This document shows, piece after piece, positions 5,046 through 48,567 of a stretch of DNA of 64,000 bases. How positions within the stretch are numbered: the stretch's first letter is position 1; each line of letters opens with the position of its first letter. Under the pieces are notes generated by a model. That model was not told where the DNA came from. It did not search any database and was given only the letters and a program-made list of their open reading frames with translations. The position numbers and the translations under genes were made by a program. Source of the stretch: Clostridia bacterium (GTDB lineage: Bacteria; Bacillota; Clostridia; Oscillospirales; CAG-272); assembly GCA_017624905.1 (NCBI GenBank), contig JAGAMD010000021.1, forward strand, positions 1,754 to 65,753. The letters are read 5' to 3'.

Positions 5046-5711
5046 TTATAGATTTTTCAAAAAACTTGTTAGTCTTTTTGCTAAAATTTCATACCCCTTG
5101 TCATTTGGATGGAGCCCATCTACTGTATATATTCCTTGCCATGGCTGAATGTGTACTGGCATAGAGCCAGCACCAAAAAGGTCTAAAACAGGAACTGAAT
5201 AGCACTCACACACTTCCTTTATTGCCTTGACATAATCGCAAAGTGGGTGTTGAACAACGCCCTCCGGCTTCCATGTACCAAGTCCACCATTTTCGTTCCA
5301 TCGGTGAAGTGGTGTTATAAACACGATAGCTGAGGTTGGATATTTTTTAATAAGCTCAACACAAAGCGTACGCACTGCACCATAAAAGGTATAAATTTCT
5401 TTATCCTCAATTGTACCAAGAGGCGCTTGACCATTTCCATAGTCGTTTGTGCCACCGAATACGACAATTACATCAGCATCGGGGTCCATATCCCACATAC
5501 GCTTTAAAAAGTCTTGATCGCGTGGCTCATTTGGGTCCTTCATTTCACTTTGTCTTGCAATCCTTGTGCCGCCCTGACCATAGTTTCTTGCCTCGGCAAG
5601 ACTATTATATTCCTTCATTAGGCTGACGTAGCATTTATCAGGTGAGCTTGCGCCACAGCCCTCGGTTATTGAGTCGCCCAAAAAGTTGATTTTCTTTCCC
5701 TTTAGCTCCAT
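5046..5711 (-). CDS. SGNH/GDSL-family hydrolase (paralog 2)
   Basis: The track ORF 5046..5813 is trimmed to the internal MELKGKKINFLGDSITEG start, which has SD ggaga. GDS block I is present, plus GGTND and a C-terminal DGLHPN block. Its ATG overlaps the upstream stop by 1 nt (TAATG). Confidence 0.85.
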   Translation of the reverse strand: MELKGKKINFLGDSITEGCGASSPDKCYVSLMKEYNSLAEARNYGQGGTRIARQSEMKDPNEPRDQDFLKRMWDMDPDADVIVVFGGTNDYGNGQAPLGTIEDKEIYTFYGAVRTLCVELIKKYPTSAIVFITPLHRWNENGGLGTWKPEGVVQHPLCDYVKAIKEVCECYSVPVLDLFGAGSMPVHIQPWQGIYTVDGLHPNDKGYEILAKRLTSFLKNL

Positions 5712-6355
5712 TATAGATTCTCCAAGAATTTTTGAAGCTTTCTTGCAATGAGCGCGTGTCCTGCATCGTTTGGATGGAGTCCGTCTGGCATATATTTTTC
5801 GCACCAAGCCCAAAGGTTACCCGGCATACCGCCGTCCTTGAAGAGATCGCAAACAGGGATTGAATAGTATTCCAAAACCTCTCTTTGTGCGTTTACAAAA
5901 TCCTTAAGCGGTCTTGACACCTCAGAGTCAAGCTTTCCCTCTTGGAGTCTATGTAATGGAGTCATAAACACAATTGGCTTTCCAACATATGTCTCAATTA
6001 GATATTTACATAGGTTGTGCATACCACCATAGAAGGTGTGAATATCCTTGTTGTCAAATGTACCAAGTGGGATAGTTGCGTGACCATAGTCGTTTGTACC
6101 GCCAAACACTACTACCATATCGGCATCAGTATCCATATCTAGTGCACGAAGGTTGAAGTCTTGGTCAAACGGATTGTCGGTAATAACCGGCAAACGTGCA
6201 ATCTTTGTTCCACCTTTACCGTAGTTTCTCGCCTCGGCAAGTCCTGCATTTGCCTTTAAAAGCTGATGATATGGCTTTGTTGCCCAGTCACTTGTGCCGT
6301 GCCCCTCTGTGATTGAGTCGCCTAGAAAGTTGATTTTTTTGCCCTTAAGCTCCAT
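5711..6355 (-). CDS. SGNH/GDSL-family hydrolase (paralog 1)
   Basis: 214 aa. MELKGKKINFLGDSITEG..., GGTNDY, DGLHPN. Clearly paralogous to the downstream gene. Confidence 0.88.
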   Translation of the reverse strand: MELKGKKINFLGDSITEGHGTSDWATKPYHQLLKANAGLAEARNYGKGGTKIARLPVITDNPFDQDFNLRALDMDTDADMVVVFGGTNDYGHATIPLGTFDNKDIHTFYGGMHNLCKYLIETYVGKPIVFMTPLHRLQEGKLDSEVSRPLKDFVNAQREVLEYYSIPVCDLFKDGGMPGNLWAWCEKYMPDGLHPNDAGHALIARKLQKFLENL

Positions 6356-15491: not shown

Positions 15492-15706
15492 ATTGCACCA
15501 TCCAAGAAATATTTATTACATTATATCATAGGATTACGTTTATGTAAATATTTTTTGGCTAATTCTGTTTTTTTGATATAAAATATCAAATTTTCATAAA
15601 TTTAACTATTTACTTTTGTTTATTTTCAGTTTATACTATTATAGTAATATTTTATAGAATATTGTATTATTTAAGGAGAAAATGTCGTTTACCGACAACT
15701 TATAAT

Positions 15707-17347
15707 ATGAACAAACATATTGATGGAAAAAGCTATTCAAAAATGCTTCTTGGTGGTGCCTCTGCTCTTTTAGAACACGCACAAGAGGTCAACGATTTAA
15801 ATGTTTTCCCTGTACCTGATGGTGATACCGGAACAAATATGGCAAAAACACTTGAGGGTGGTATTGCTAAGCTTTCAACAGATGACACAGATAGCATCGG
15901 TGAAGCATCAAAGAGCTTTTCAAACGGTGTTTTGCTTGGTGCAAGAGGCAACTCAGGTGTCATTCTTTCTCAGATATTTGCAGGTATCAATGAGGAGCTT
16001 TCAAAATATGATGTTATTGATGCCAAGGGTCTTGCCGAGGCTTACAAAAATGGTATAAAGAAATCATACTCTGCTGTTCAAAATCCAACAGAGGGTACAA
16101 TTCTAACTGTATTTAGAGAAAGCACTGAATACGCAGCTGAAAACATTGATGAAAATTCAACCATCGAGGACTTTTTCAAGCTACATATTGAAAAGGCTAA
16201 GGAATCATTAGCAAAAACAAAGGAGCTTCTTCCTGTTCTTGCGGAGGCTGACGTTGTTGACTCCGGTGGAGCCGGATATTTATATATTGCTATTGGTATG
16301 TACGAGGTTTTAACCGGTAAGTCTTTACCTTCGTTCCAACTTGATAAGATTGAAAGTAAATCATCTTCGGTTAATATTGACATGTTTACACGTGATTCTG
16401 TGCTTGAGTTTGGATACTGCACAGAGTTCCTTTTAAGACTAACAACAAATAAGGTTGATCCTGACAATTTTGATATGAATCAAGTTCTTGATATTCTTAA
16501 CGAGCTTGGTGGCGAAAGCATTGTTGCTTATCAAACAGGCGATATTGTAAAGGTTCACGTCCACACCTTCACCCCCGGTCTTGTTCTTACAAGAATACAG
16601 GAATTTGGTGAATTTTTAACTGTGAAAATCGAGAATATGTCAGTTAGTCATTCCGGCACACCGGAAAAAAAGTCCTCAAACGGCAAGAGCTTTTCTGTTC
16701 TAACAGTCGCAAGTGGCGAGGGAATGTGCTCTTTATTTACTGATATGGGTGCTGATTTGATTGTTGCAGGTGGACAAAGTGCAAATCCTTCGACCGAAGA
16801 GTTTATCGAAGCATTTAACAAATGCGACACACCCAACATTCTTGTTTTACCAAACAACAAAAACGTATTTTTAGCGGCAAATCAAGCAGCGGAAATATAT
16901 AAGAATGCAAATGTACACATTATCCCTACCAAGAGCTTAATGCAGGGCTACGGAGCTTTATCAGTTATCACTCCCGGTATTACCGATATAGAAATGCTTG
17001 TTGAAAATGCGACACGTGCAGCAAATTCACTTATCGGCAGTGAAATCACTCGTGCTGTAAGAAATGTTACAATTAACGGCAAGGAAATCAAGGAAAACGA
17101 CTATATTGCTATCACAGACGGACAAATTAATGTAGTTAGCGACAGTGCTAAAAACGCTGTTTTAGCCGTTCTTGAAGATGCTGATATGGACGAATACGAG
17201 ATTGTTACTCTATTCGTTGGTAAGAATATTTCTGAAACTGAACGTGCTGAGCTAACCGAGAAAATTGAAGACCTATATCCTGATTGCGAGGTTATTGTTT
17301 ACGAGGGTGGACAAGACGTTTACGATTATCTTATAGCTATCGAATAG
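15707..17347 (+). CDS. fakA: Fatty acid kinase ATP-binding subunit FakA (DAK2-domain protein YloV)
   Basis: Trimmed to MNKHIDGKSYSKML by analogy with the YloV N-terminus. VFPVPDGDTGTNM Dak2 motif. About 546 aa, the typical YloV length. Confidence 0.88.
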   Translation: MNKHIDGKSYSKMLLGGASALLEHAQEVNDLNVFPVPDGDTGTNMAKTLEGGIAKLSTDDTDSIGEASKSFSNGVLLGARGNSGVILSQIFAGINEELSKYDVIDAKGLAEAYKNGIKKSYSAVQNPTEGTILTVFRESTEYAAENIDENSTIEDFFKLHIEKAKESLAKTKELLPVLAEADVVDSGGAGYLYIAIGMYEVLTGKSLPSFQLDKIESKSSSVNIDMFTRDSVLEFGYCTEFLLRLTTNKVDPDNFDMNQVLDILNELGGESIVAYQTGDIVKVHVHTFTPGLVLTRIQEFGEFLTVKIENMSVSHSGTPEKKSSNGKSFSVLTVASGEGMCSLFTDMGADLIVAGGQSANPSTEEFIEAFNKCDTPNILVLPNNKNVFLAANQAAEIYKNANVHIIPTKSLMQGYGALSVITPGITDIEMLVENATRAANSLIGSEITRAVRNVTINGKEIKENDYIAITDGQINVVSDSAKNAVLAVLEDADMDEYEIVTLFVGKNISETERAELTEKIEDLYPDCEVIVYEGGQDVYDYLIAIE

Positions 17348-17355
17348 GAGTTACT

Positions 17356-18351
17356 ATGTATAAAATTATTATCGACACTAAGGGCTCTGACAATGGACCT
17401 TCTGTTATAACAGCAGGTGCTTGTCAAGCACTTGCTAAATTTGACAATTTAGAGGTTATTTTGGTCGGTGACCACGATGTTATTTTGGAAGAGGTGAAAA
17501 AGCAAAACGCTCCTCTTGACAGAATAGAAATAATCGACGCACCAGACGAAATAAACAACTATGACAATCCAATGAGTGCTGTTTTTGAAAAGCCTAATTC
17601 ATCACTTATTGTAGCACTCGATACATACTCAAAGAGAGATGATATTTGTGGTATGCTAAACTCGGGCAATACAGGTGCGGTACTCACAGGTTGTATGAGA
17701 TTTTTAGCAGGAGAAAAAAGAGTTCGCCCTGCTATGGCAGCGGTTATGTTTACCTCAAATGGAAATCTTACCTGTATGCTTGATTCCGGCTCGGTGGTGG
17801 ATTGCAACGCCGAAACACTTGTAGAATATGCCCACTTAGGTGCAGAATTTATGGGCAAAATGTATGGCATAGAAAATCCTCGTGTTGCTCTGCTTTCTAA
17901 TGGCAGTGAGTCAACAAAGGGCAACAAGGTTGTAAAGGAAGCACACAAGCTGCTTGTAGAATCCGACCTCAATTTTGTTGGTAATGTAGAGGGAAACACA
18001 GCACTAAATGGTCTTTGCGATGTGCTTGTATGTGATGGCTTTGCAGGAAACCTTGTGTTAAAGGTTACTGAGGGTACTGCTAAGCGCATTTTAACCGACA
18101 TTGTTAAATATGCTAAAGAAACCGGTAGCAAGGAGGCTATGGAGCTATTTAACCACCTTCTAAAGGCGTATGATATTTCATCACTCGGTGGCGGGGTTAT
18201 CCTTGGCATTTCCAAAACTGTTATTAAAACTCGCAGTGCCGCTGACGAAAAAACAATTCTTTCTACAACAGAAATGATTCTTAACATGGCTCAAAATAAA
18301 GAAATTTATGATAAAACCAAACTAAAGGAGATAAATCATGTCCAAAATTAA
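17356..18351 (+). CDS. plsX: Phosphate acyltransferase PlsX
   Basis: Trimmed to MYKIIIDTKGSDNGP. FVGNVEGNTALNGLCDVLVCDGFAGNLVLKVTEG matches the PlsX core motif. Confidence 0.92.
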   Translation: MYKIIIDTKGSDNGPSVITAGACQALAKFDNLEVILVGDHDVILEEVKKQNAPLDRIEIIDAPDEINNYDNPMSAVFEKPNSSLIVALDTYSKRDDICGMLNSGNTGAVLTGCMRFLAGEKRVRPAMAAVMFTSNGNLTCMLDSGSVVDCNAETLVEYAHLGAEFMGKMYGIENPRVALLSNGSESTKGNKVVKEAHKLLVESDLNFVGNVEGNTALNGLCDVLVCDGFAGNLVLKVTEGTAKRILTDIVKYAKETGSKEAMELFNHLLKAYDISSLGGGVILGISKTVIKTRSAADEKTILSTTEMILNMAQNKEIYDKTKLKEINHVQN

Positions 18352-19231
18352 AATTGTTTGTACTTCAACCGGCGCTATTGAATACGCACCAGAGCGCTAC
18401 AGAAATTTAGGAATTGATATTTTAAGAATACATATGTCATTCAAGGGCAAGGAATATCTTGAAGGACCAGACCTTGACCCTGTTAGATTTTACGAAGAGC
18501 TTGAAACTCTTGAAAATCCAAAGAACAATCTACCAAAATCTGCTCTTCCTTCACCAGCTGAAATTTACGAATGCTTTGATAAGTCTGTTTCTGAGGGCTA
18601 CGATGAAATGATTATCTTTACAGTTTCATCCGGTCTTGGTGGAACATATAATGCAGTTTGCAATTTTGCTAAGGAATATACCGGAAACATCAAAATCCAT
18701 GTTGTTGATACAAAAATGGCTGCTTTTGGTGAGGGCTTACACGCTATTCGCGCTCAAGAAATGGTAAACAATGGTGCAACTGTTGAAGAGATATTAAAGG
18801 AATCAGAATGGGCTATCAAGCATCAAGAATTTATTGGTATTGATGGTAAGCTTGACTATCTTATTTACAATGGCAGACTAAAGGGTGCTAAGGCATTTAT
18901 GGGACAAATGCTAAAGATTTGTCCACTTCTCCGCTTCAAGGATGGAGAAATTGTTGCTGTTGAAAGCATAAGAACACCTAAGAAGGCTCTTAAGCGTACC
19001 TGTGAGGTGCTTAAGGAAATCATTGGCGACAGAAAGCCTGAGGATTATATACTTTTCCACGTATATACAGGTCCATCTATGCTTGAGCTACTCAAGGAAA
19101 TCGAAAAGGATTATGGCATTGAGACTAACCACGAGGATGTTATTATGGGTCCTGTTAGCGGCTGTCATAACGGTCCATGGCTTGCAGCATATAGTCTATA
19201 CCTAAAGCGTCGTGAGGACGAGGAGCTATAA
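18338..19231 (+). CDS. DegV-family fatty-acid-binding protein (FakB)
   Basis: 297 aa. Follows the DegV pattern (KIVCTSTG..., LPKSALPSPAEIYECF, IFTVSSGLGGTYNA). Overlaps the plsX stop by 14 nt. Confidence 0.88.
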   Translation: MSKIKIVCTSTGAIEYAPERYRNLGIDILRIHMSFKGKEYLEGPDLDPVRFYEELETLENPKNNLPKSALPSPAEIYECFDKSVSEGYDEMIIFTVSSGLGGTYNAVCNFAKEYTGNIKIHVVDTKMAAFGEGLHAIRAQEMVNNGATVEEILKESEWAIKHQEFIGIDGKLDYLIYNGRLKGAKAFMGQMLKICPLLRFKDGEIVAVESIRTPKKALKRTCEVLKEIIGDRKPEDYILFHVYTGPSMLELLKEIEKDYGIETNHEDVIMGPVSGCHNGPWLAAYSLYLKRREDEEL

Positions 19232-19237
19232 TTTTTT

Positions 19238-20356
19238 ATGCTAACTATTCAAGAGGTTAAGACTAAAAAGGATATAAAGGAATTTATTGAATTTCCGCTA
19301 AAATTATATCGTGAATGTCCATACTTTGTCCCACCTCTCTATTCTGATGAAAAAAAGTTACTTTTATCAGGTGGCAGTTCATCTGAGGCCGAGTCAATTT
19401 TCTTACTTGCGAGACGTGATGGCAAGGTTGTTGGTCGTATCCACGGTATTTTGCAAAAGCAATATAATCAGCTACATAACACGAAGCGAATTCGCTTTAC
19501 AAGATTTGATGCAATAAATGATAAAGAGGTATCAAAAGCATTATTTGATGCTGTTGAAGCTTGGGGACGTAGTCTCGGTATGACTGAGATTTGTGGGCCA
19601 CTCGGCTTTAATGACCTTGAGCGTGAGGGATTGCTTATCGAGGGGTTTTTTGAGGACTCAACCTTTGAAGAGCAATATAGCTACGAGTACTATCCTCATC
19701 TTATTGAATCACTTGGCTACAAAAAAGAGATTGACTGGCTTGAATTTGAGCTAAAAGCTCCGGAAAAGAAGAATGAAATGCTTGAGCGAGTTGCCAAAAG
19801 ATCGTTGGAGTTGAACAAACTACACATTGCTGACTCCAATATGTCAAAAAAAGCTTACCTTAACAAATACAAGGACGGATTTTTCGACTGTCTAAATGAA
19901 TGCTACAGCAAGCTTTATGGTACTGTTCCTATTCCAAAGGAGCAACAAAAGATACTTTTTGATCAGTTTATTTCTGTTATAAATACTGATTATTTTATCG
20001 TTATTTGTGATGAAAAGGAAAAGGTTGTTGCTTTCGGTCTATGCTTTCCTAGTATCGGTAATGCTTTAAAGAAGAGCGGCGGCAGATTAACCTTACCTGC
20101 TATTATCAAATTTTTAAAGGCTGTCAAGCATCCTAAGGTTATAGATCTAGGTCTTGTGGCTGTTTTGCCTGAATATCAAAATGCAGGTGTTAATGCTGCC
20201 ATAGTAAACGGTCTTGTTGATATGCTATCATCCGGCAAAATTGAAAGGGTTGAAACAAACTTAAATCTTGAAACTAACACACAGGTAATGGCTCAATGGA
20301 AATACGTCTCACCTAGACAACATAAGCGCAGACGTTCATATTTAAAATCGCTATAA
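19238..20356 (+). CDS. Two-lobed GNAT-like acyltransferase, substrate unknown
   Basis: 372 aa. N-terminal FPLKLYRECPYFVPPLYSDEKKLL. C-terminal GNAT-like core (LGLVAVLPEYQNAGVNAAIVNGL). Starts 6 nt after degV. Confidence 0.65.
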   Translation: MLTIQEVKTKKDIKEFIEFPLKLYRECPYFVPPLYSDEKKLLLSGGSSSEAESIFLLARRDGKVVGRIHGILQKQYNQLHNTKRIRFTRFDAINDKEVSKALFDAVEAWGRSLGMTEICGPLGFNDLEREGLLIEGFFEDSTFEEQYSYEYYPHLIESLGYKKEIDWLEFELKAPEKKNEMLERVAKRSLELNKLHIADSNMSKKAYLNKYKDGFFDCLNECYSKLYGTVPIPKEQQKILFDQFISVINTDYFIVICDEKEKVVAFGLCFPSIGNALKKSGGRLTLPAIIKFLKAVKHPKVIDLGLVAVLPEYQNAGVNAAIVNGLVDMLSSGKIERVETNLNLETNTQVMAQWKYVSPRQHKRRRSYLKSL

Positions 20357-20366
20357 GGAGATTATT

Positions 20367-20588
20367 ATGTTAGAAAAGTTAAAAGAAATACTAAAAAAGG
20401 TACTCCCAAATGCAGACGTATCTAATGTTACTAAGGAGACAAAATTAATCGAGGATCTCGGCTTTGACTCACTCGCTATTATGATGATGTCAATGGAGGT
20501 TGAGGACGCATTCAACTTTAGATTTACGGAATTTGTTAAATTTGAAACAGTTGGAGATGTAATTAACTATCTTGAAAGCAGAATATAA
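20367..20588 (+). CDS. Acyl/peptidyl carrier protein, non-canonical
   Basis: 73 aa. Phosphopantetheine site DLGFDSLAIMMM. Helix II (SLAIMMMSMEVEDAF) is much less acidic than housekeeping AcpP. Confidence 0.8.
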   Translation: MLEKLKEILKKVLPNADVSNVTKETKLIEDLGFDSLAIMMMSMEVEDAFNFRFTEFVKFETVGDVINYLESRI

Positions 20589-20592
20589 AAGT

Positions 20593-20618
20593 AAAACCAC
20601 CCAAATGGGTGGTTTTTT
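20593..20618. terminator. Bidirectional terminator ending the fakA-to-ACP operon
   Basis: aaaa-ccaccc-aaat-gggtgg-tttttt. Confidence 0.85.
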
Positions 20619-22557
20619 ATTTTGATAGAAACAATATAACAGGCTCTTGCGTGTTGGCATTTTTGCTTATAATAATGTCTTTTTTGTTTAGTGTGAAGCT
20701 TAATTCTTCTCTTTCTCCGTTTGGTGTCAAGCATTCAATTTTAGTTGGAGCAAATTCACACTCTAACTCTATTTTTTCTATTGGATCAAGACCTATATTA
20801 AATAGTGCACAGAAAAGCTCACCATCTTGAGTATCGGCACACTTTAGGTAAACCTCCTCATCACCTTTATAGTATATTGGAAGCTCACCTGCCGTTTTGA
20901 GCATATTTACAAGCTGTTCCTTTCTTGAGTATGAAAGAAATGAAAATGCATCTGAAATATTAAAATCAGCCACCGGTGTGCCACAGAATGTAAATACTGT
21001 ACCACCAAGCTCATTTTTATAAATTGTTGAACCGGCAAAAAGCTCTTCATAACTTTCGTGGTCAACGGTATTAAGTGCATATGAGTCTATTTTTGTATTA
21101 GGTGATAAAGGAACAAGCTCCTTGGTTTGCATTTGTGCCTTAACTAAGCCACCATTAATGCATATTCTCTCTCTTATAGCCGGCTTTCCTGTCCATTCAC
21201 GAACATCTACACCAAGATATTTGCCAAAGCCACGATTAATTAGATTTTTAGCTGTATTGGATGCTAGGAAAACAGATCCCTTTAAAAGCTCAAGCACCTC
21301 ACTATCAGTAAACCAAGAGTCGCTATCGCCCTCTAGGCATAGCACACCGCCGTTTTCACCTGAAAAATACATTGGTATGCCTAATCTTTCAAGCACACAG
21401 TAGCTCCAACCATCGCTCTCCTCCTTTACTCTACCATAAGTAAAGTCCGGTGCTTTTGGAGTATGTATTCTACAACCACGCCATTTTAAGGATGGTGTTA
21501 ACTCGGCTAGCTTTTCATAAAAGCCATTATATTTTGACAATATTCTTCTATACGCCTTGCCACTGTCCGGCTCATATGTAATAAGTCTCGTTATCCAATG
21601 CTTAGCTCCGGTTGCTCCCTCTAGAATTGAGCCTGTAAAATGAGTATGCAAGGACATAGCTCCTGTGCTGTATCTATTTTGTGGACATGTATCGGTTTCG
21701 GCTAAAATAACATCTACCTTATCCTTTAGCTTTGCAATTTGAGTTGCGGCACGTTGAAAAACTCTACTAAGATATCTAGCTCCTTGTGGGGTGTAATTGC
21801 CGTTGTTTATTCTAACAGTTATAGGATTGCCCTCTCCTGCTAAAACAGATGCAATTTCATATGCAAACTCTGCATTGTTACCGCAACAACAATACGACAT
21901 AGGTAGCTTAGGATTTACACTGTCAACACCTTGTCGCATTATTTTTGCTGTTTCAAGTAGTGAATCTCGTTGTGTCTCAATATATATGTCTGTATATTTC
22001 TTGCTTAGTTCTGTTCTTTTATTTACAATATCCCAAAGCTCTTTTCTAGTTAGGCTTACCCCTGCTTTTTCATTAAATCTAGCCATATGCAGAGGACAAG
22101 CACAGCCCTCGCCCTTATACCAAATTAGACGAAAATCATCATCAATCATAATACACTCGGGATTTTGGATAGCAATTGCTCTCATTACATTATAAATGTA
22201 ATCCTTAAAGTCCTCATCACAGGGGCAAACAGAATCAACGCTTTTTCCATCGTTGAAATTAACATGGCTTTGATATGGAAATTTTTCTCCAAGAGTCCAA
22301 CCGTGACCTACTGAGGCTTGTACCAAGACACCACAGTTAAATCCCATAGAGCTTAGCTTATCTCTAAAAAGTGAATATTTTTTGCACAAAATACTAACCT
22401 TATCACGAGGCGGATTGCCCTCTGGTACAAGTGTCATTTGAAATAATGCACAGGTTGCGACACCCGTTTCATATTGCTCCTTAATATCCGCACATATTTC
22501 GTCAATATGATCAGTATCAAGTGGCATTATACTATAATTTAAAAGTTTATTTTTCAT
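20617..22557 (-). CDS. Uncharacterised 646-aa cytoplasmic protein with several Cys clusters
   Basis: Long ORF with SD gaggat and no signal peptide. Motifs CPCDEDF, GEGCACPLH, SYCCCGNN and AETDTCPQNRY. I cannot assign a family. Confidence 0.8.
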   Translation of the reverse strand: MKNKLLNYSIMPLDTDHIDEICADIKEQYETGVATCALFQMTLVPEGNPPRDKVSILCKKYSLFRDKLSSMGFNCGVLVQASVGHGWTLGEKFPYQSHVNFNDGKSVDSVCPCDEDFKDYIYNVMRAIAIQNPECIMIDDDFRLIWYKGEGCACPLHMARFNEKAGVSLTRKELWDIVNKRTELSKKYTDIYIETQRDSLLETAKIMRQGVDSVNPKLPMSYCCCGNNAEFAYEIASVLAGEGNPITVRINNGNYTPQGARYLSRVFQRAATQIAKLKDKVDVILAETDTCPQNRYSTGAMSLHTHFTGSILEGATGAKHWITRLITYEPDSGKAYRRILSKYNGFYEKLAELTPSLKWRGCRIHTPKAPDFTYGRVKEESDGWSYCVLERLGIPMYFSGENGGVLCLEGDSDSWFTDSEVLELLKGSVFLASNTAKNLINRGFGKYLGVDVREWTGKPAIRERICINGGLVKAQMQTKELVPLSPNTKIDSYALNTVDHESYEELFAGSTIYKNELGGTVFTFCGTPVADFNISDAFSFLSYSRKEQLVNMLKTAGELPIYYKGDEEVYLKCADTQDGELFCALFNIGLDPIEKIELECEFAPTKIECLTPNGEREELSFTLNKKDIIISKNANTQEPVILFLSK

Positions 22558-29866: not shown

Positions 29867-29889
29867 GATGTACTAAAAATGCGACAGTT
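29867..29889. repeat. 23-bp direct repeat, copy 2 (GATGTACTAAAAATGCGACAGTT)
   Basis: Ends 5 nt before the -35 element of the recombinase promoter. Confidence 0.8.
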
Positions 29890-29894
29890 TGGGG

Positions 29895-29923
29895 TTGCAA
29901 TTGTTGGGAATGTATGCTACAAT
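29895..29923 (+). promoter_or_regulatory. Sigma-A promoter of the serine recombinase gene
   Basis: TTGCAA (29895-29900), 17-nt spacer, TGcTACAAT extended -10 (hexamer 29918-29923). Confidence 0.65.
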
Positions 29924-29950
29924 CAGGACACCTTGGAAGGGGGTGGAAAG

Positions 29951-31489
29951 ATGAGAGGTGTTATTTATGCGAGGTACTCCTCGGACAATCAGCGAGAGGA
30001 GTCGATTGAGGGGCAGATTCGTGAGAATACTGCTTATGCTGAGAGGAATGGCATTACCATTGTTGGGCACTACATTGACAGGGCTTATTCGGCTAAGACT
30101 GACAATCGTCCTGAGTTTCAGCGAATGATTAAGGACAGTGCAAGGCATGGGTTTGATGTTATCATTGTGTGGAAGCTTGACAGATTTGCTCGTAACCGTT
30201 ATGATTCGGCAAGATACAAGATGCTTCTTAAAAAGAATGATGTGCGTGTTATATCGGCAACTGAGGCAATTTCTCAGGGTGCTGAGGGAATTATTCTTGA
30301 GGCTGTGCTTGAGGGAATGGCTGAATACTACTCTGCTGACCTTTCAGAAAAGGTTTCAAGAGGTATGAAGGAAAATGCTCTCAAATGCGTTTACAATGGT
30401 GGAATTGTTCCTCTTGGCTTCAAGATTGATGAGGAACGGCATTATCAAATTGATCCTGAAACTGCTCCTATCATTGTGGAGATTTTTACAAGGTATGATA
30501 ATGGCGACAGAATGGTTGACATTATTGACGACCTAAACAGGCGAGGCATCAAAAATGGTGTTGGGCGACCGTTTAATCGCAATTCTATTGGGAGCATTAT
30601 CAAGAACAGGCACTACATTGGTGAATACTTTCATGGTGATGTTGTTATTCCAGATGCCTTTCCTGCTTTAATTAACTATGAATTATTTGACAGGGTTAAT
30701 AAAAAGCACGAAAGAAACCACAGAATTGCAGGGCGATTCCGTGCTAAGGAGAAATATATTCTTGGCACTAAATTGTTCTGTGGCAAGTGCAAGGCGATGA
30801 TGCACGGAGATTGTGCTAAAAAGAGCAACGGAACGGTTTATCGCTATTACAGGTGCTACAATAAAAAGGAGCGCCTATGCGACAAGAAGGCTGTTAAAAA
30901 ATCTTGGATTGAGGATCTTGTTATTGGCAAGATTATGGAGCTCTTAATGGATGACGCGATGCTAAATAAGATTGCCGATTCAATTATGGACCTATACAAG
31001 TGCGATGAGAATGCTATTGCCGTTTTAGAGGGGCAATTAAGAGGAACGCAAAGGTCTATTGACAATCTTGTAAGGGCTATTGAAAAGGGCGTTGTTACAA
31101 GCTCTACGCAGGCACGACTTGAGGAGCTTGAAGAGGACGCCAAAAGGTTGCAAAGTGCTATTCGTGAGGAAGAGGCAAGGCGACCTAAGCTAACTAAGGA
31201 GTTTATTCTCTTCACTCTTCAAAAGTATAAGAGCTTAGGCCTGACAAGCCTTAGAAATCGTGAGAAATTGGTTGATTCTTTGGTCAACTGCATTATTCTC
31301 TACGACGACAAAATCGTAATCACCTTCAACTACGAAAATGAATCAGTAACAATAAAAACTACCGAGGAAATTTCCTCGGTAGAAATACATAGTTCGGATT
31401 TTCAGTCAACAAGGTCGTCTGTAACCCCCAAACAAAAAAGCAAGGCGTTTTGCCTTGCTTTTTTGTTATTTTACAAAGTCGTTATATGA
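29951..31489 (+). CDS. Large serine recombinase (resolvase catalytic domain + recombinase domain + zinc ribbon + coiled coil)
   Basis: Trimmed to MRGVIYARYSSDNQ after SD ggaaggggg. Catalytic Ser in YARYSS, DRFARN, Zn ribbon CGKCKAMMHG...YYRCYNKKERLCD. The C-terminal tail reads through a terminator hairpin. Confidence 0.92.
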   Translation: MRGVIYARYSSDNQREESIEGQIRENTAYAERNGITIVGHYIDRAYSAKTDNRPEFQRMIKDSARHGFDVIIVWKLDRFARNRYDSARYKMLLKKNDVRVISATEAISQGAEGIILEAVLEGMAEYYSADLSEKVSRGMKENALKCVYNGGIVPLGFKIDEERHYQIDPETAPIIVEIFTRYDNGDRMVDIIDDLNRRGIKNGVGRPFNRNSIGSIIKNRHYIGEYFHGDVVIPDAFPALINYELFDRVNKKHERNHRIAGRFRAKEKYILGTKLFCGKCKAMMHGDCAKKSNGTVYRYYRCYNKKERLCDKKAVKKSWIEDLVIGKIMELLMDDAMLNKIADSIMDLYKCDENAIAVLEGQLRGTQRSIDNLVRAIEKGVVTSSTQARLEELEEDAKRLQSAIREEEARRPKLTKEFILFTLQKYKSLGLTSLRNREKLVDSLVNCIILYDDKIVITFNYENESVTIKTTEEISSVEIHSSDFQSTRSSVTPKQKSKAFCLAFLLFYKVVI

Positions 31490-33241
31490 AATGAATGCGT
31501 ATTTTGCTCCGTTTTCCTTAGTGCCAGCTTGTAGGTATGAATATTCCTTGCTTCCATCAAGTGTGGTTTCAAGATATGCGCCGATAGCGAATTTTGCTGA
31601 TTTGCTTTCTTCAGTGTCAAAGCCCATCATTTTTAGTTTTAAAATAGCATAAGTATTTGGAGTCTCAGCTATTAATGTAGAATTGTTTATTGGATCGCCA
31701 TATGTGTCGAAAATATCATTATTTCCTATTGCGCTTGTTGTAGCAAATAAGCCATATTTCACTGTTTTGCCTGTTAGCTCCTCGTATCTTGCAATTGCTA
31801 CAGTATCAACTGTAAACTTTATTGTAATTCCGTTATTGCCGTTTTCTGGAGATGAATAACCCAGACACTCAAAGAGTGCGTTTAGCTTTTCTGTTGTTCC
31901 ATTTTCACAGCCATCGTTAGTACAGCCAACATAGTACTCGCCCTCTTGCATAAAGCTTAAATATGTTACTCTTTTACTGATTATGTGCTCCTTTTGCTCC
32001 TTAATGGTGTATTCCTCACACATTGAGCAGATAAGAGCTGTTGTACAATCACCATCGTCGCCTGGATTTGTGTGAACACCGTCAAATGCAACATCACAAA
32101 GGTTGCAGTCGTAAATCACCATATACGCATTGTATGTATAATTCTCGTTTTTGTAGTCCTCATAGGAATAATATTCTGCATTATAGAAACGAGCTGTTGA
32201 AGAGCAAAGCTCGTCAATTCTCTCATAGTCCGCACCTGTGTAGTAGGTAATGAATGTAGAGTTATTAGGAGTAGTTCCCAAGGCTGAAGAGCCGAAGCTT
32301 GTAAATTTTTCGGTTAGCACAAGCTCCTTCAAGGCAGAGCAATCCTTAAATGTTTCATTAGCAAGTTTAGAGCCTAACACAACCACTCTCTCAAGAGTAG
32401 TGCTACCTTGAAATACAGCTGACCCCATAGTTGAGACGGAAGCGGGTATTACAAGGCTTGTTAGCTTCGTTCTTGCAAACGCATATTGTCCAATGGAGGT
32501 TACGGTGCTTGGTAGCTCAAGGCTAGTTATGTTAAGAACACCACCACTAGGATTACAAAAAGCATTTGAACCGATGGTAACTGTATTTTCAAGCTCGATC
32601 GTCGTAAGATTATCGTTATCATAGAATGCTTTTTCAGGAATATTAGCGCATTTACAGTAAACCTCGGCAAGACTTGGACATTCAGAAACACAGTCAGAAC
32701 CGAATGACGTTACCGATGATGGAATAACAATTGATGAAATATTTGAGCCTTTAAAAGCATATGACTCGATTTTGGTGCAGCTATCAGGAATAACTATTGA
32801 ATTTGAAATACCTGATGATCTAAATGCAAGTGTCTTAATAGTGGTAACACCATAAGGTATATCAACGCTAACAAGACCAGTGCATCCGGATGACAAATTT
32901 AGCGTAGTTGAAATGGTAGTAGTACCCTTAGGTATTTCAATTCTTATAATATCCTTTTTCTCATAGGATTTTGATGCATTTGTATTTAGTGAGCTAAGGT
33001 CAATTGTAAGTGTTTCTTGATTCTTGCATATATAATATGCAGGGTAGGTTACGCCATCAGACATTAAAACGCGTGAGGTCGCCCCAACAGTACCGTCGGT
33101 ACCAAATGTAGACTTGTCTGGCATACCACTAACCTCGGTAATTTTTGTCCATTCCGGAATATCTGTTGCCATCGCTGTTATAGCAAAAAGGCAAAATGCC
33201 ACTGATAGAATCGCTAAAAACAATATCAGCTTCTTTTTCAT
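31466..33241 (-). CDS. Secreted BspA-type leucine-rich-repeat protein, paralog 1
   Basis: 591 aa. Signal peptide MKKKLILFLAILSVAFCLFAITAMA. Repeats of the form IPSSVTSFGSDCVSECPSL / LPSTVTSIGQYAFARTKL. Cys-rich segment and a conserved C-terminal module. Confidence 0.85.
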   Translation of the reverse strand: MKKKLILFLAILSVAFCLFAITAMATDIPEWTKITEVSGMPDKSTFGTDGTVGATSRVLMSDGVTYPAYYICKNQETLTIDLSSLNTNASKSYEKKDIIRIEIPKGTTTISTTLNLSSGCTGLVSVDIPYGVTTIKTLAFRSSGISNSIVIPDSCTKIESYAFKGSNISSIVIPSSVTSFGSDCVSECPSLAEVYCKCANIPEKAFYDNDNLTTIELENTVTIGSNAFCNPSGGVLNITSLELPSTVTSIGQYAFARTKLTSLVIPASVSTMGSAVFQGSTTLERVVVLGSKLANETFKDCSALKELVLTEKFTSFGSSALGTTPNNSTFITYYTGADYERIDELCSSTARFYNAEYYSYEDYKNENYTYNAYMVIYDCNLCDVAFDGVHTNPGDDGDCTTALICSMCEEYTIKEQKEHIISKRVTYLSFMQEGEYYVGCTNDGCENGTTEKLNALFECLGYSSPENGNNGITIKFTVDTVAIARYEELTGKTVKYGLFATTSAIGNNDIFDTYGDPINNSTLIAETPNTYAILKLKMMGFDTEESKSAKFAIGAYLETTLDGSKEYSYLQAGTKENGAKYAFISYNDFVK

Positions 33242-33405
33242 TTTAGTTTTCTCCTTTTATGTAAATTTCATAAATTGCCAATTTATATACCTTATGATTT
33301 GATTATATCATTATATAACCGCAAACACAATAGATTTTTTTGACAAATATATGGACAAAATTGTTTTTTCGTGGTATAATTTTACAAAAACAGAAAGGAG
33401 TCAAC

Positions 33406-34224
33406 ATGCATTTATACTCTGGAAAATTAAGCAATGGAAAGCAAACCATAACCGATAGATTTATATATATTAATGATTTTGGATTCTGCGAGGACCAATC
33501 AAATGTGCCACTATGCCGTGAAGACGGTAGAGCTGACTATCAGCTTTTTTATGTTAAGCACGGTTCTATTACAGTACAGGAGCAAGGAAAAGAACGCATT
33601 CTTAAAAACGGAGATATTTGCTTGTATAGACCTAACGAGCCACAGATGTACAATATTGGCAAAGAAGCTACAACACATTATTGGGTTCATTTTACCGGCA
33701 GTGTGGTGGAAAGTATGCTTTCGTTTTTCAAGGAGCGCTCATATCATATAGGAAGCTTCCCTGAATTTGAGCATTTCTGTAGTAGCCTATGGAGTGATTC
33801 TAAAGATGATGAGGAATGTTCCGAGCTATTATTGGATGGTATGCTGATAACAATTATTGCTCGTATAATGAAGATTGTCAGCCAAGAGGGAAATAAAAAT
33901 AATGAGCTATCTAAGCTTCATAAGGCCCTACGACTTATGAAGTCAGAGTGTCATATAAGGCGTTCAAATAAAGAGCTGTCTAAGCTTTGTGGAATAAGTG
34001 AATTTTATTTTATAAAGCTTTTTAAGAAAAGCTTAGGCGTTTCTCCTCAAGAATATTACGCTAAGCTTATTATTGATAAAAGCTCACATTTATTAATCGA
34101 TACCAATTACAGCATTTCCGAAATTTCTAAATTATGTGGCATTGAGGATGCATTATACTTCAGCCGAATGTTTAAAAAACACATGGGCATCTCACCATCT
34201 GCGTATCGAAAAAGCAAATTTTAA
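33406..34224 (+). CDS. AraC-family regulator (cupin sensor + HTH), unit 1
   Basis: Trimmed to the ATG after aaaggag. C-terminal double HTH (LSKLCGISEFYFIKLFKK...ISEISKLCGIEDALYFSRMFKKHMGISPSAYRK). Confidence 0.88.
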   Translation: MHLYSGKLSNGKQTITDRFIYINDFGFCEDQSNVPLCREDGRADYQLFYVKHGSITVQEQGKERILKNGDICLYRPNEPQMYNIGKEATTHYWVHFTGSVVESMLSFFKERSYHIGSFPEFEHFCSSLWSDSKDDEECSELLLDGMLITIIARIMKIVSQEGNKNNELSKLHKALRLMKSECHIRRSNKELSKLCGISEFYFIKLFKKSLGVSPQEYYAKLIIDKSSHLLIDTNYSISEISKLCGIEDALYFSRMFKKHMGISPSAYRKSKF

Positions 34225-34280
34225 TATGTGCTCTTTTGCACTAAAACAAAAAAGCAAGGCCTTTGCCTTGCTTTTTATTG

Positions 34281-35975
34281 TTATTGTGTTACTACTATAT
34301 CGTTATATGATATAAAAGCATATTTTTCGTTATCGTTTGGCGCACTTTGTTGGAGATATGAGTATTTCTTATTACCATCTAGTGTAGTTTCAACATATGC
34401 GCCGATAGCAAATTTTGCACTTTTGCTTTCAGTCGTATCGAAGCCTACTATTTTAAGTGATAAGAATACATAATCATTGCTTAAAACCTCTGCAATAAGT
34501 ACGCAATTTACAGGATTGCCATTCTCGTCAAAAATATCATTGTTTCCAATATTTTGCTGTGATGCTGCAAACAAGCCATATTTAACTGATTTACTTGTTG
34601 CTTCTTCATATTCAGAAATCGCACTAGTATTAACTTTAAACTTTATAGCAATTCCACCATTTCCGTTCTCTGGTGCTGAATAGCCAAGGCATGTAAAGAG
34701 TGGTAAAACACTTGTTACATATGGATTTTCGCCATGTGCACAATTACTGTTTTGACAGGTTTGAATTTTCTTTCCGTTTTCAAGATAGCTTGAATACTCG
34801 ATTATTGTTTTATAATTATGAACTGGACTAGAAGACATCTCTATTTTACCACAGATTGAACAAACACCAGCACAGCTATTGGATGTGTCTTCATCAATTT
34901 GATGCTCACCATAATAAACATCACAGATGTTTGTGCCAGAAATAATGTATTTGCCCTCTGTATATTTGCTAGGAGCTACTATATAATCTTCATAAGAAAC
35001 AATTGCAGTTGCTTCAATTGTGTCCTTAACGCCATTTAAATATTCAGTATTATTAGTTACAAAGAAGAAGTATTTTCCTGTTGATCTAAAATCAACCGTT
35101 CTATTGCCATCAACACATTCAATAAAGTTTTCCTTAAAGGATGTTAAATCAATTGTAGGATTGTCTCCTAAAAAGTAGATGCTTGTAAGATTTGTACAGC
35201 CTTCAAAGTTGCGTTGTCCTAAGCTTGTTCCGTTGCCCAAAATATAAACGCTTTCAAGATTTTTACAATCTCTGAAGTTATCTGTTCCAATGCTTGTTAC
35301 TACCTCAGGAATAACTATTGATGAAATTGCAGTGCCTTTAAATTTATAGTTATTATTTCCTTCAAATGTGTATGCTGGTCCTATTGGCAATCTTACAGTA
35401 TGTAAATTGGTACAACCACTAAAGTTTTGTGTACCACCAAAGCCACCAACAAGATTATCGCAAACAGACATGTCAACAAGCCTTAATGCTGTTTTTCCCT
35501 TAAATTTATCAGGACAATCCTTTAAGGTTGCAGGATAATACATATACTGAATGTGATTTAAATTAATATTTCCAAGATAAATCATATCGAATTCTCTTAA
35601 GTTGAGAACTACAATTTGCAAGCTATCATCAATGGTTGAAATATATTCGCCAGTTTCTTCATTATAGGTATGGATATAAATTTCTGTCAACTGAGCCCAT
35701 TGACCAGTTGTGCTTACATATGTAACATAAGTGTCATGATTTTCATTTGGTTCGTTGCGATTGTTAGGTACTGAGCTATAAACATTTTTACCGAATTCGT
35801 CCACTCCACTAACATACCAAATTAAAGGATTATGGCTTTCGTCATAGATTGGAAGGACACTACCATCTGCAAGAGTGGCGGTTTCGTTATAGTCCACAGT
35901 AGCAAATGCACATGTTGTAAAGAGACAAGTAAAGATTAAAATGCCAAAAAATACGATTAAAAGCTTTCTTTTCAT
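34281..35975 (-). CDS. Secreted BspA-type leucine-rich-repeat protein, paralog 2
   Basis: 564 aa. Signal peptide. LRR_5-like repeats (IVIPEVVTSIGTDNFRDCKNLESVYI). The C-terminal module is about 60-70% identical by eye to paralog 1. Confidence 0.85.
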   Translation of the reverse strand: MKRKLLIVFFGILIFTCLFTTCAFATVDYNETATLADGSVLPIYDESHNPLIWYVSGVDEFGKNVYSSVPNNRNEPNENHDTYVTYVSTTGQWAQLTEIYIHTYNEETGEYISTIDDSLQIVVLNLREFDMIYLGNINLNHIQYMYYPATLKDCPDKFKGKTALRLVDMSVCDNLVGGFGGTQNFSGCTNLHTVRLPIGPAYTFEGNNNYKFKGTAISSIVIPEVVTSIGTDNFRDCKNLESVYILGNGTSLGQRNFEGCTNLTSIYFLGDNPTIDLTSFKENFIECVDGNRTVDFRSTGKYFFFVTNNTEYLNGVKDTIEATAIVSYEDYIVAPSKYTEGKYIISGTNICDVYYGEHQIDEDTSNSCAGVCSICGKIEMSSSPVHNYKTIIEYSSYLENGKKIQTCQNSNCAHGENPYVTSVLPLFTCLGYSAPENGNGGIAIKFKVNTSAISEYEEATSKSVKYGLFAASQQNIGNNDIFDENGNPVNCVLIAEVLSNDYVFLSLKIVGFDTTESKSAKFAIGAYVETTLDGNKKYSYLQQSAPNDNEKYAFISYNDIVVTQ

Positions 35976-46916: not shown

Positions 46917-47564
46917 ATGGACATTACACAAGAGATAAGTAAGCCGCAAAACTTGCCAAATGATAAATATGTAAAAAGCTCCTCTTCTCCTCTCGGCTTG
47001 TTCTTTAAAAGACAAGGAGCGTTTTTCAAATCAAAGGCAGTTTACAAGCACAAGCTTGTGAACAAAAAGCTTCTTAATAAATTCAAATTCACAGGGTACT
47101 TCTTATATGGTGTGAACCAAGAGAGCTCTGACATTGCTTTGACTCGGTTAACCGAGTATCCAAAGGAGAGCGACTTTGTTCTAAGTCAAAATGATTTTTT
47201 TAAAGATGATAATTCTCTTTTTACAAAATCAAGGCGAAGAATATACAGCGGGAAATCAATCGTTGTAATGCTGGACAAAGAAAAGTCTTCAAACAAAAAT
47301 GAGCTTTTTGAGCTGCCTATTTTACTTGATGTTCCTGCTTTTTCCTTTACTAATGTTTATAAAAAGCGTGGCTCATCTAAGACTCCAAATATTATCACTT
47401 ATATTGATGGTCCTTTTTATCCTAACTCCAACCTTTCACAAGAAGAACAAAAGGAGCACTTAAAGGAACAAATATTTGAGTGTATTATAGAGCGAGAAAG
47501 CTTAAGCGACAGCGAATTTAAAAATTTGAGTAACAACAAAGGGATAAATAAAAATGATAACTAA
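46917..47564 (+). CDS. Hypothetical protein
   Basis: 215 aa. SD gaagggag. No recognisable motifs. Overlaps the GT8 gene start by 11 nt. Confidence 0.65.
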   Translation: MDITQEISKPQNLPNDKYVKSSSSPLGLFFKRQGAFFKSKAVYKHKLVNKKLLNKFKFTGYFLYGVNQESSDIALTRLTEYPKESDFVLSQNDFFKDDNSLFTKSRRRIYSGKSIVVMLDKEKSSNKNELFELPILLDVPAFSFTNVYKKRGSSKTPNIITYIDGPFYPNSNLSQEEQKEHLKEQIFECIIERESLSDSEFKNLSNNKGINKNDN

Positions 47565-48504
47565 AGAAATTCCAATTTTTTATGCTTGTGATGATGCATT
47601 TGTAAAATACACAATTGTTTCACTTTCATCAATGATTAAAAATGCCTCTAAGGACTATAAATACCACGTTTATGTGCTCTACACCGATATTTCTAAGGAA
47701 ATGATGGACAAAACACTTGCTCTTGCTAATGAGAATTTTGAAATAACCTTTAAGAATGTTGACAAATATTTAAAGTCAATTTCTAAAAAGCTTCCGCTAC
47801 GTCATTACTATTCTAAAACAACATATTATCGCTTATTTATTGCCGATATGTTTCCCGAATATGACAAGGCTATTTATATTGACAGCGACACTATCGTGCT
47901 TGGTGATATTTCAGAGTTATATGAAACAGATGTTTCTAACCACTACCTAGCTGGTTGTCGTGAGCAGGCTATGGAGCAGGTTGATGTTTATGGCACATAT
48001 GTTGAAAAGGTTATCGGTATCTCAAGACACGAGTTTTTCAATGCCGGTGTGATTCTTATCAACTGTGAAAAATTCAGAAATGAAAATGTTTTAGATAAAT
48101 TTATACACTATCTTGGTGTTTACGACTTTATTGTTACTCAAGACGAGGACTATTTAAATCTTGTTTGCAAGGACAAGGTTCTTTGGCTTGACCAAAAATG
48201 GAACACAGAGCTTACAGCCGGACTTGAATATGGCTACGATATTGAAGCAGCTAACATTCTCCATTTTATCATGGTAAACAAGCCTTGGCACTATCACAGC
48301 TGTCGTTGTGCCGATGTTTTTTGGAGCTACGCTAAGGAAACTTGTGTTTATAATGATCTTTTAGCTGAGCTTGAATCTTATACAGATGAGCAAAGAGAGA
48401 GGGATGCAGTCTCAGCTGAACAGCTTGCTCAAATGGCAATTGATGAAACCGCCCGTGAGGACAATTTCTTAAATGTTTGGGGAGATAAGCTTCCACTTGT
48501 ATAA
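47554..48504 (+). CDS. Family-8 glycosyltransferase
   Basis: 316 aa. IPIFYACDDAFVKY, DxD in YIDSDTIVLGD, FNAGVILIN, HFIMVNKPWH. Confidence 0.85.
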   Translation: MITKEIPIFYACDDAFVKYTIVSLSSMIKNASKDYKYHVYVLYTDISKEMMDKTLALANENFEITFKNVDKYLKSISKKLPLRHYYSKTTYYRLFIADMFPEYDKAIYIDSDTIVLGDISELYETDVSNHYLAGCREQAMEQVDVYGTYVEKVIGISRHEFFNAGVILINCEKFRNENVLDKFIHYLGVYDFIVTQDEDYLNLVCKDKVLWLDQKWNTELTAGLEYGYDIEAANILHFIMVNKPWHYHSCRCADVFWSYAKETCVYNDLLAELESYTDEQRERDAVSAEQLAQMAIDETAREDNFLNVWGDKLPLV

Positions 48505-48567
48505 TAAATCTTGTGCCACAGTGATTTTCAACTGTGGCATACAAACTGAAATGGAGATAAGTTTTTT

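Follow-up and report, generated by a model that had tools for sequence, protein, structure and literature searches.

A tandem GNAT assigned to the bacterial ceramide synthase family is encoded in a conserved fatty acid kinase operon of uncultured Clostridia

A 64-kb stretch of DNA from an uncultured Clostridia bacterium (contig JAGAMD010000021.1; "the window" refers to this whole stretch) carries a five-gene operon in which genes for activating scavenged fatty acids are joined to the gene for a tandem GNAT that, judged by homology, is a member of the YghO/bacterial ceramide synthase family. An initial annotation of this DNA had described five codirectional genes with gaps of 8, -14, 6, and 10 nucleotides (nt), closed by one strong terminator. 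Rereading the open reading frame (ORF) listing and each junction directly gave exactly this layout, with fakA, plsX, degV/fakB, the GNAT gene, and an acyl carrier protein (ACP) gene all on the plus strand between 15707 and 20588. We propose, with a probability of about 0.5, that the operon is a self-contained module for the activation of scavenged fatty acids with a built-in N-acyltransferase, whose product would be a ceramide-like N-acyl lipid. The five genes are as follows.

15707 to 17347, plus strand: fakA, fatty acid kinase catalytic subunit, 546 residues, with Dak2, FakA_M, and FakA_C domains
17356 to 18351, plus strand: plsX, phosphate acyltransferase, 331 residues, identified by PF02504 and TIGR00182
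18338 to 19231, plus strand: degV/fakB, fatty-acid-binding subunit, 297 residues, identified by PF02645; overlaps plsX by 14 nt
19238 to 20356, plus strand: tandem (two-lobed) GNAT assigned to the YghO/bacterial ceramide synthase family, 372 residues, identified by a structural model, Foldseek, and BLASTP
20367 to 20588, plus strand: atypical ACP, 73 residues, identified by PF00550; its phosphopantetheine serine, in the DSL motif, is Ser35 (codon 20469 to 20471)

Profile searches bore out the identities that the initial annotation had given to these genes. The three Pfam domains of FakA (PF02734, PF21645, and PF13684) all occur in one protein, which scored 532 bits against the TIGR03599 YloV model (cutoff, 396) and 425 bits against the equivalog NF038248, under its cutoff of 975. 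PlsX scored 226 bits against PF02504 (cutoff, 29) and 234 bits against TIGR00182, slightly below the equivalog cutoff of 243. For DegV/FakB, the scores were 199 bits with PF02645, 209 bits with TIGR00762, and 130 bits with the FakB1 equivalog, whose cutoff is 350. In the Fak families, FakB binds free fatty acid and FakA phosphorylates it, after which PlsX equilibrates the acyl-phosphate with acyl-ACP (PMC9083066, PMC12594616, and PMC6509188). The domain calls match this established route, supporting the reading of these genes as a salvage operon. Firmicutes normally have just one plsX, with a housekeeping role, so the operon probably also feeds ordinary phospholipid synthesis.

The fourth gene sets the operon apart. 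In Pfam, its product matched PF00583 (28.5 bits, residues 233 to 340) and, weakly, PF13508 (E ≤ 0.1). An AlphaFold2 model built with 30 homologues (predicted local distance difference test [pLDDT], 85.6; predicted template modeling score [pTM], 0.82) consists of two GNAT lobes with a helical linker between them, in agreement with the two-lobed protein anticipated by the initial annotation. When the model was compared with the Protein Data Bank (PDB) using Foldseek, the top matches were all tandem GNATs, namely 2wpw, MAB_4324, a glucosamine N-acetyltransferase, MshD, VipF, and Eis, a similarity that is at the level of the fold only (template modeling [TM] score, 0.55 to 0.66; 10 to 12% identity). 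Searches of PDB sequences gave a chance match with the single sequence and only the generic β4-α3 GNAT core with a profile. Like the solved tandem GNATs (2wpw from the clavulanate-pathway ORF, MAB_4324 [7q3a], 5kf1, and MshD [1ozp]), the window protein has two lobes and a cofactor loop in the C-terminal one; those enzymes differ in acting on small polar substrates with acetyl-CoA. Only in the C-terminal lobe is the pyrophosphate-binding loop Q-x-x-G-x-(A/N) (Q314 to N319) kept, and most residues that are invariant in the family sit in the N-terminal lobe; E345, N347, and R67 are among the conserved positions. The protein is basic (isoelectric point [pI], 8.6) and lacks a transmembrane segment (maximum 19-residue hydropathy, 1.52), properties that fit docking on an acidic ACP or on a membrane surface.

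Several other identities for this protein were rejected. Neither the PF13444 (Acetyltransf_5) nor the FemAB Pfam models, both raised by the initial annotation, matched it at E ≤ 0.1, and on that ground it is not a PF13444 N-acyl synthase. Members of that group (OlsB and the human-microbiome N-acyl amide synthases) are single-domain proteins, unlike the two-lobed GNAT of the window; the reaction proposed here, in which an amine receives a long acyl chain from a thioester, is the one that they perform. An N-myristoyltransferase-like enzyme was discarded since N-myristoyltransferase is absent among the 50 structural matches listed, and a FemX-like one since FemX is only weakly similar (TM score, ~0.4).

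Alignment with the intact YghO of Escherichia coli BL21 points to a different relationship. By BLASTP, the two proteins are 27% identical (E = 4e-39), with residues 1 to 372 of the window GNAT aligned to residues 7 to 380 of YghO without large gaps; phmmer gave 112 bits for YghO, and the YghO of strain K-12 was matched at E = 7e-37. CC_1154 and yghO (ECD_02850) are listed among the "aca" genes, which encode the acyl-CoA N-acyltransferase that acts in dihydroceramide synthesis (PMC9386255). CC_1154 has been named CerS (PMC11324152), and bacterial ceramide synthase (bCerS) is a peripheral membrane protein (PMC11087976). The link between the window GNAT and CC_1154 thus runs through YghO, and the equivalence of yghO and CC_1154 is that of PMC9386255 rather than of a sequence comparison. 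The GNAT shares with the bCerS proteins (Caulobacter CC_1154/CCNA_01212 and E. coli YghO) a length of about 375 residues, the absence of a transmembrane segment, and the tandem GNAT fold. In the RefSeq annotation of E. coli BL21(DE3), yghO lies divergently beside genes for a fatty acyl-AMP ligase, an NAD-dependent epimerase-family protein, an ACP, and serine palmitoyltransferase (Spt). Like the window GNAT, YghO has a fatty-acid-activating enzyme and a small specialized ACP encoded close by; unlike it, YghO adjoins an acyl-AMP ligase and not a FakA-PlsX-FakB set. The K-12 copy of yghO (locus L092, 11044 to 13341; BL21 counterpart, L094, 3283 to 4425) overlaps an IS5 element at its 5' end, and this element stands in the place of the spt cluster that neighbors yghO in BL21. 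Its product is annotated as a "putative DNA-binding transcriptional regulator," a name that looks wrong for a tandem GNAT.

The genomic setting of distant relatives agrees with this assignment. In three loci of Bacteroidales type, these relatives come directly after a 395-residue aminotransferase, which in locus L086 is serine palmitoyltransferase by the NCBI equivalog (698 bits; cutoff, 640). Two paralogues of the YghO family follow the spt gene in a row in each of the three.

L086, 4803 to 12054: Spt, two paralogues, then an epimerase-family short-chain dehydrogenase/reductase (SDR), a CDP-alcohol phosphatidyltransferase, and a nucleotidyltransferase
L089, 4789 to 9289: Spt, two paralogues, then an SDR
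L090, 4789 to 10138: Spt, two paralogues, then a CDP-alcohol phosphatidyltransferase and a nucleotidyltransferase

Along its entire length, the window GNAT is 34% identical to one L086 paralogue (E = 7e-79) and 39% identical to the other (E = 9e-93), and the position after spt is where a sphingolipid cluster would be expected to carry its N-acyltransferase. The clustering in these three loci contrasts with the statement that the three ceramide genes are not clustered in Bacteroidota (PMC11334938). The contexts of the further distant members at L087, L088, and L091 were uninformative. Together, sequence comparison and gene context place the GNAT in the YghO/bacterial ceramide synthase family.

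This family is large. A search matched 6,594 of 8,000 scored candidates, and the members fall into at least 4,298 clusters at 50% identity, with proteins of ~375 residues found down to 30% identity; their source names are "hypothetical protein" or "GNAT family N-acetyltransferase." Unusual architectures also occur among them: a 548-residue fusion that ends in an MsrA (methionine sulfoxide reductase) domain (P0218; 127 cluster members, one short member being labeled Candidatus Phocaeicola), a 784-residue internal duplication (P0222), and a protein with a Cys-rich N-terminal extension of ~130 residues (P0186).

Conservation of the operon in relatives, on which the initial annotation had made its proposal depend, proved to be strong. 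In three relatives at ~68 to 70% identity, the five genes stand in the same order, flanked by other genes than in the window. A survey that took one genome per species returned 80 loci, all from uncultured gut, cecum, or rumen metagenome-assembled genomes mostly labeled Clostridia (the window organism is likewise known from metagenome assemblies only); a closer alignment was used for this search, as a 16-sequence family alignment was too diverse. The GNAT homologue has a fak, plsX, or acp neighbor in 66 of these 80 species-level loci, in three gene orders. The exact order of the window was found in 25 loci. The second order is fakA-degV-GNAT-plsX-acp, with a GNAT ~50 to 53% identical to that of the window and a DegV highly divergent from the window FakB (~50 bits), and in the third, plsX lies on the opposite strand, facing degV-GNAT. 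Reduced forms were also seen, with the GNAT-ACP pair alone in two loci and DegV-GNAT without FakA, PlsX, or ACP in some others. Where there was enough sequence to tell, a degV gene lay directly upstream of the GNAT gene in most cases (59 of 77 loci). The recurrence of the arrangement in dozens of species indicates that it did not arise by chance. When 23 complete operons of the window type were compared with the window, the median identity was 55% for FakA, 53% for PlsX, 64% for FakB, 63% for the GNAT, and 69% for the ACP. By this measure, the GNAT is no less conserved than the core lipid genes, indicating that selection on it is equally strong.

The carrier protein is unusual in the window and varies among relatives. 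It scored 36 bits against PF00550 and 45 to 47 bits against AcpP models, below their cutoffs of 66 to 71. Its helix II, DSLAIMMMSMEVEDAF, is Met-rich and weakly acidic and does not follow the housekeeping AcpP pattern DSLD..EL.M.LEEEF, and its pI is 4.59, versus 4.05 for the reference sequences used for the E. coli and Bacillus subtilis ACPs. The description of this ACP as atypical in the initial annotation thus holds. All operons with the window order encode an atypical ACP (motif DLGFDSLAMMM.SMEIEDAF; 18 to 34 bits against B. subtilis ACP), and those with the order fakA-degV-GNAT-plsX-acp encode an AcpP-like one (motif GADSLD.LQLLMTIEEE..IPDEE; 43 to 66 bits). The split between loci L055 to L083 and L006 to L051, into a Met-rich window-order type and a type with AcpP-like helix II, is clean. 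Since the form of the ACP differs between operon types, the GNAT is not bound to a particular kind of ACP. The window lineage has either relaxed or retuned the only ACP it has or encodes a second, canonical one elsewhere in its genome; no second ACP was found in the window. Precedents for both exist in Lactobacillales: Enterococcus faecalis has AcpA together with the plsX-linked atypical AcpB, which PlsX loads preferentially from acyl-phosphate, and Lactobacillus johnsonii, which lacks type II fatty acid synthesis, has the AcpB type only (PMC6509188).

In the pathway that we propose, exogenous fatty acid would be bound by FakB (DegV) and phosphorylated by FakA to acyl-phosphate, and PlsX would load the acyl chain onto the coencoded ACP. 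The tandem GNAT would then take the long acyl chain from its thioester and attach it to an amino group on a lipid-like acceptor, which may be a sphingoid base or another amine, to give a ceramide-like N-acyl lipid. The simplest donor would be the acyl-ACP made by the operon's own PlsX and ACP. The acceptor might be a sphingoid base (supplied by genes elsewhere in the genome or obtained from the gut), an aminophospholipid, or an amino acid. The initial annotation had drawn the same course from fatty acid through acyl-phosphate and acyl-ACP to N- (or O-) acyl transfer. Homology to YghO and to the Spt-adjacent proteins now lends it independent support; we infer the ability of the GNAT to act on long acyl chains, its use of the operon's acyl-ACP as the donor, and the nature of its acceptor.

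Literature searches turned up nothing relevant that connects either the Fak system or DegV to GNATs or to ceramide synthase of bacteria. In the plsX-acpB operons of E. faecalis and other Lactobacillales, an atypical ACP is likewise cotranscribed with plsX and loaded from exogenous fatty acid via FakAB and PlsX, but neither a GNAT nor fakA/fakB is reported in them, and the known role of AcpB is in FabT regulation and possibly in supplying PlsC (PMC6509188). The initial annotation also referred to reports of gut Clostridia that pair N-acyl synthases with ACPs. That system is OaaA/OaaACP/OaaC of Coprococcus eutactus, in which a dedicated ACP receives exogenous fatty acid for condensation with an amine. 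The fatty acid is activated in that system by an adenylating enzyme and not by FakAB-PlsX, and the amide is made by the condensation domain of a nonribosomal peptide synthetase (NRPS) and not by a GNAT (PMC13310621). The window GNAT does not belong to that family, and by Pfam neither an adenylation enzyme nor an NRPS condensation domain is present among the five operon genes.

Several observations weigh against a ceramide-like product of this operon. At E ≤ 1e-3, a search for homologues of serine palmitoyltransferase, of a CerR-like reductase, and of head-group transferases found none in the window or in up to 8 kb on either side of the gene in 85 clostridial loci, so that a source of the sphingoid acceptor is not in view; in this the GNAT differs from the bCerS family, as it does in its host, a Gram-positive Clostridium. 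The bCerS enzymes are described as dependent on acyl-CoA and not on acyl-ACP (PMC9386255), whereas the donor that we favor is acyl-ACP. Identity between the GNAT and YghO is only 27%, and CC_1154 is reached via YghO only. The ACP of the sister operons resembles ordinary AcpP, so the carrier may be a housekeeping one rather than dedicated to this pathway. Finally, fak-type neighbors are absent in 14 of the 80 loci, whose homologues are ~50 to 63% identical to the window protein.

An alternative is an operon of ordinary function, in which salvaged fatty acid reaches phospholipid by way of FakAB, the cell's sole PlsX, and its sole or principal ACP, and the GNAT is an accessory with a non-lipid or regulatory task, such as acetylating a small molecule or a protein. 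Linkage of plsX and acp is ordinary in Firmicutes, the plsX-adjacent atypical AcpB is known as the sole ACP of L. johnsonii (PMC6509188), sister operons encode a canonical-looking AcpP, and neither a second ACP nor a fab gene lies within the window. The best structural matches of the GNAT are also acetyl-CoA-dependent tandem GNATs, although, as noted above, these are matches of fold only. Against this reading, the GNAT stays beside DegV, PlsX, or ACP across three gene orders, is as conserved as FakB, and is a full-length homologue of the N-acyltransferase family of ceramide synthesis and of the Spt-adjacent paralogues. Linkage that outlasts gene rearrangements, taken with the family assignment, weakens the idea of a housekeeping operon with a passenger gene, which we consider possible but somewhat doubtful.

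Two other roles for the GNAT keep it within lipid metabolism. It could be a glycerolipid O-acyltransferase, a soluble enzyme taking the place of PlsC or PlsY and passing an acyl group from acyl-ACP or acyl-phosphate to glycerol-3-phosphate, a lysophospholipid, or a glycolipid. It sits among the genes that make both of the donors used by PlsY and PlsC, lipid O-acylation by double-GNAT enzymes has precedents (such as the aminoacyl-phosphatidylglycerol synthases), and FemX-type folds are among its weaker structural matches. Its closest characterized relatives, however, are N-acyltransferases, and a PlsC-family PF01553 acyltransferase is already encoded in the window (48568 to 50079), leaving no evident gap in the pathway for the GNAT to fill; an O-acyltransferase role is thus improbable. 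Equally improbable, in our judgment, is a GNAT that takes acyl-phosphate directly from FakB, or one whose adjacent DegV delivers the lipid acceptor instead of the fatty acid. Here the gene neighborhoods are suggestive: the directly upstream DegV is the most constant neighbor (59 of 77 loci), some loci retain DegV-GNAT without FakA, PlsX, or ACP, and the DegV of the second operon type is very divergent from the window FakB. But the C-terminal lobe of the GNAT retains a pyrophosphate-binding loop of the kind usual in proteins that bind CoA or phosphopantetheine, the GNAT-ACP pair stands alone in two loci, and we know of no GNAT that uses an acyl-phosphate donor. An N-acyltransferase that would be fed with acyl-ACP by its own operon is the reading that we prefer over these.

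The following control signals accompany the operon.

15609 to 15637, plus strand: promoter-like site, TTTACT-17 nt-TATACT, ~70 nt upstream of fakA; weak, with 9 of 12 positions in a consensus scan
15682 to 15705, plus strand: mini-ORF of 7 codons (MSFTDNL) with a strong AAGGAGA ribosome-binding site, read from the sequence
20593 to 20616, both strands: bidirectional intrinsic terminator, from a terminator scan and RNA folding

Promoter-like sites are barely above chance across the region (41 found, 31 expected from shuffles). The TAA stop codon of the mini-ORF lies 1 nt ahead of the fakA ATG (TAATATG), which has no obvious ribosome-binding site of its own, and the mini-ORF may be a translational-coupling leader for fakA; alternatively, fakA could start at the upstream TTG at 15662. 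The terminator consists of a 10-bp stem, 5 of whose pairs are G-C, a loop of 4 nt, and a T-run; it has a folding energy of -16.2 kcal/mol (z = -4.3 relative to shuffled sequences) and is common to the operon and a convergent gene. The 646-residue product of this gene (20617 to 22557, minus strand) has no Pfam match at E ≤ 0.001. An Rfam scan of the operon gave only subthreshold leader-like matches, all on the terminator, indicating that the operon contains no riboswitch. The upstream regulator differs by locus, being a WYL/WCX protein in the window and two-component systems or TetR in relatives. We rejected a mobile or horizontally acquired island, as the GC content of the operon (38.7%) is nearly that of the window (36.8%) and the flanking genes are ordinary.

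Elsewhere in the window, two adjacent genes for GDSL-family lipases/acylhydrolases (5046 to 6355, minus strand; overlapping as listed) could be a source of free fatty acid for the Fak system. A series of plus-strand genes at 46917 to 50079 encodes a 215-residue protein without a Pfam match, a family-8 glycosyltransferase, and the 503-residue protein with the PF01553 domain mentioned above, which covers residues 299 to 432 only and is preceded by a long N-terminal region without a match; these genes may form a glycolipid or lipid-remodeling unit. At 29879 to 31489, 31466 to 35975, and 58750 to 60705 lie a large serine recombinase gene and, next to it, genes for BspA-type leucine-rich-repeat surface proteins; the window encodes three such repeat proteins.

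Both halves of this system are known, the Fak/PlsX/ACP salvage route on one side and the bCerS family on the other, and they are combined here. What is new is the combination itself: a protein assigned by its sequence to the ceramide-synthase family of N-acyltransferases, encoded in a FakA-PlsX-FakB-ACP operon that many uncultured Clostridia of the gut and rumen have kept. Bacterial ceramide synthesis is tied to carriers of Spt, mainly Bacteroidota with some Proteobacteria and Actinobacteria. It is conceivable, though rather unlikely, that many of these Clostridia make ceramide-like N-acyl lipids purely by salvage, using FakAB-PlsX, a specialized ACP, and the ceramide-synthase homologue, in which case the amine might be a sphingoid base from the host, the diet, or neighboring Bacteroidota. 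If so, sphingolipid-type chemistry, or the detoxification of sphingoid bases, would be added to Firmicutes, and this would be the first Fak-fed N-acylation pathway. The atypical and canonical ACPs of the sister operons constitute a natural experiment on how an ACP changes with its partner enzymes, and with five small genes the question of the pathway is a tractable one. More broadly, a conserved ceramide-synthase homologue in a fatty acid kinase operon points to an unrecognized class of N-acyl lipids that abundant gut bacteria, so far uncultured, would build from host or dietary fatty acids, and it offers a candidate function for a large uncharacterized protein family.

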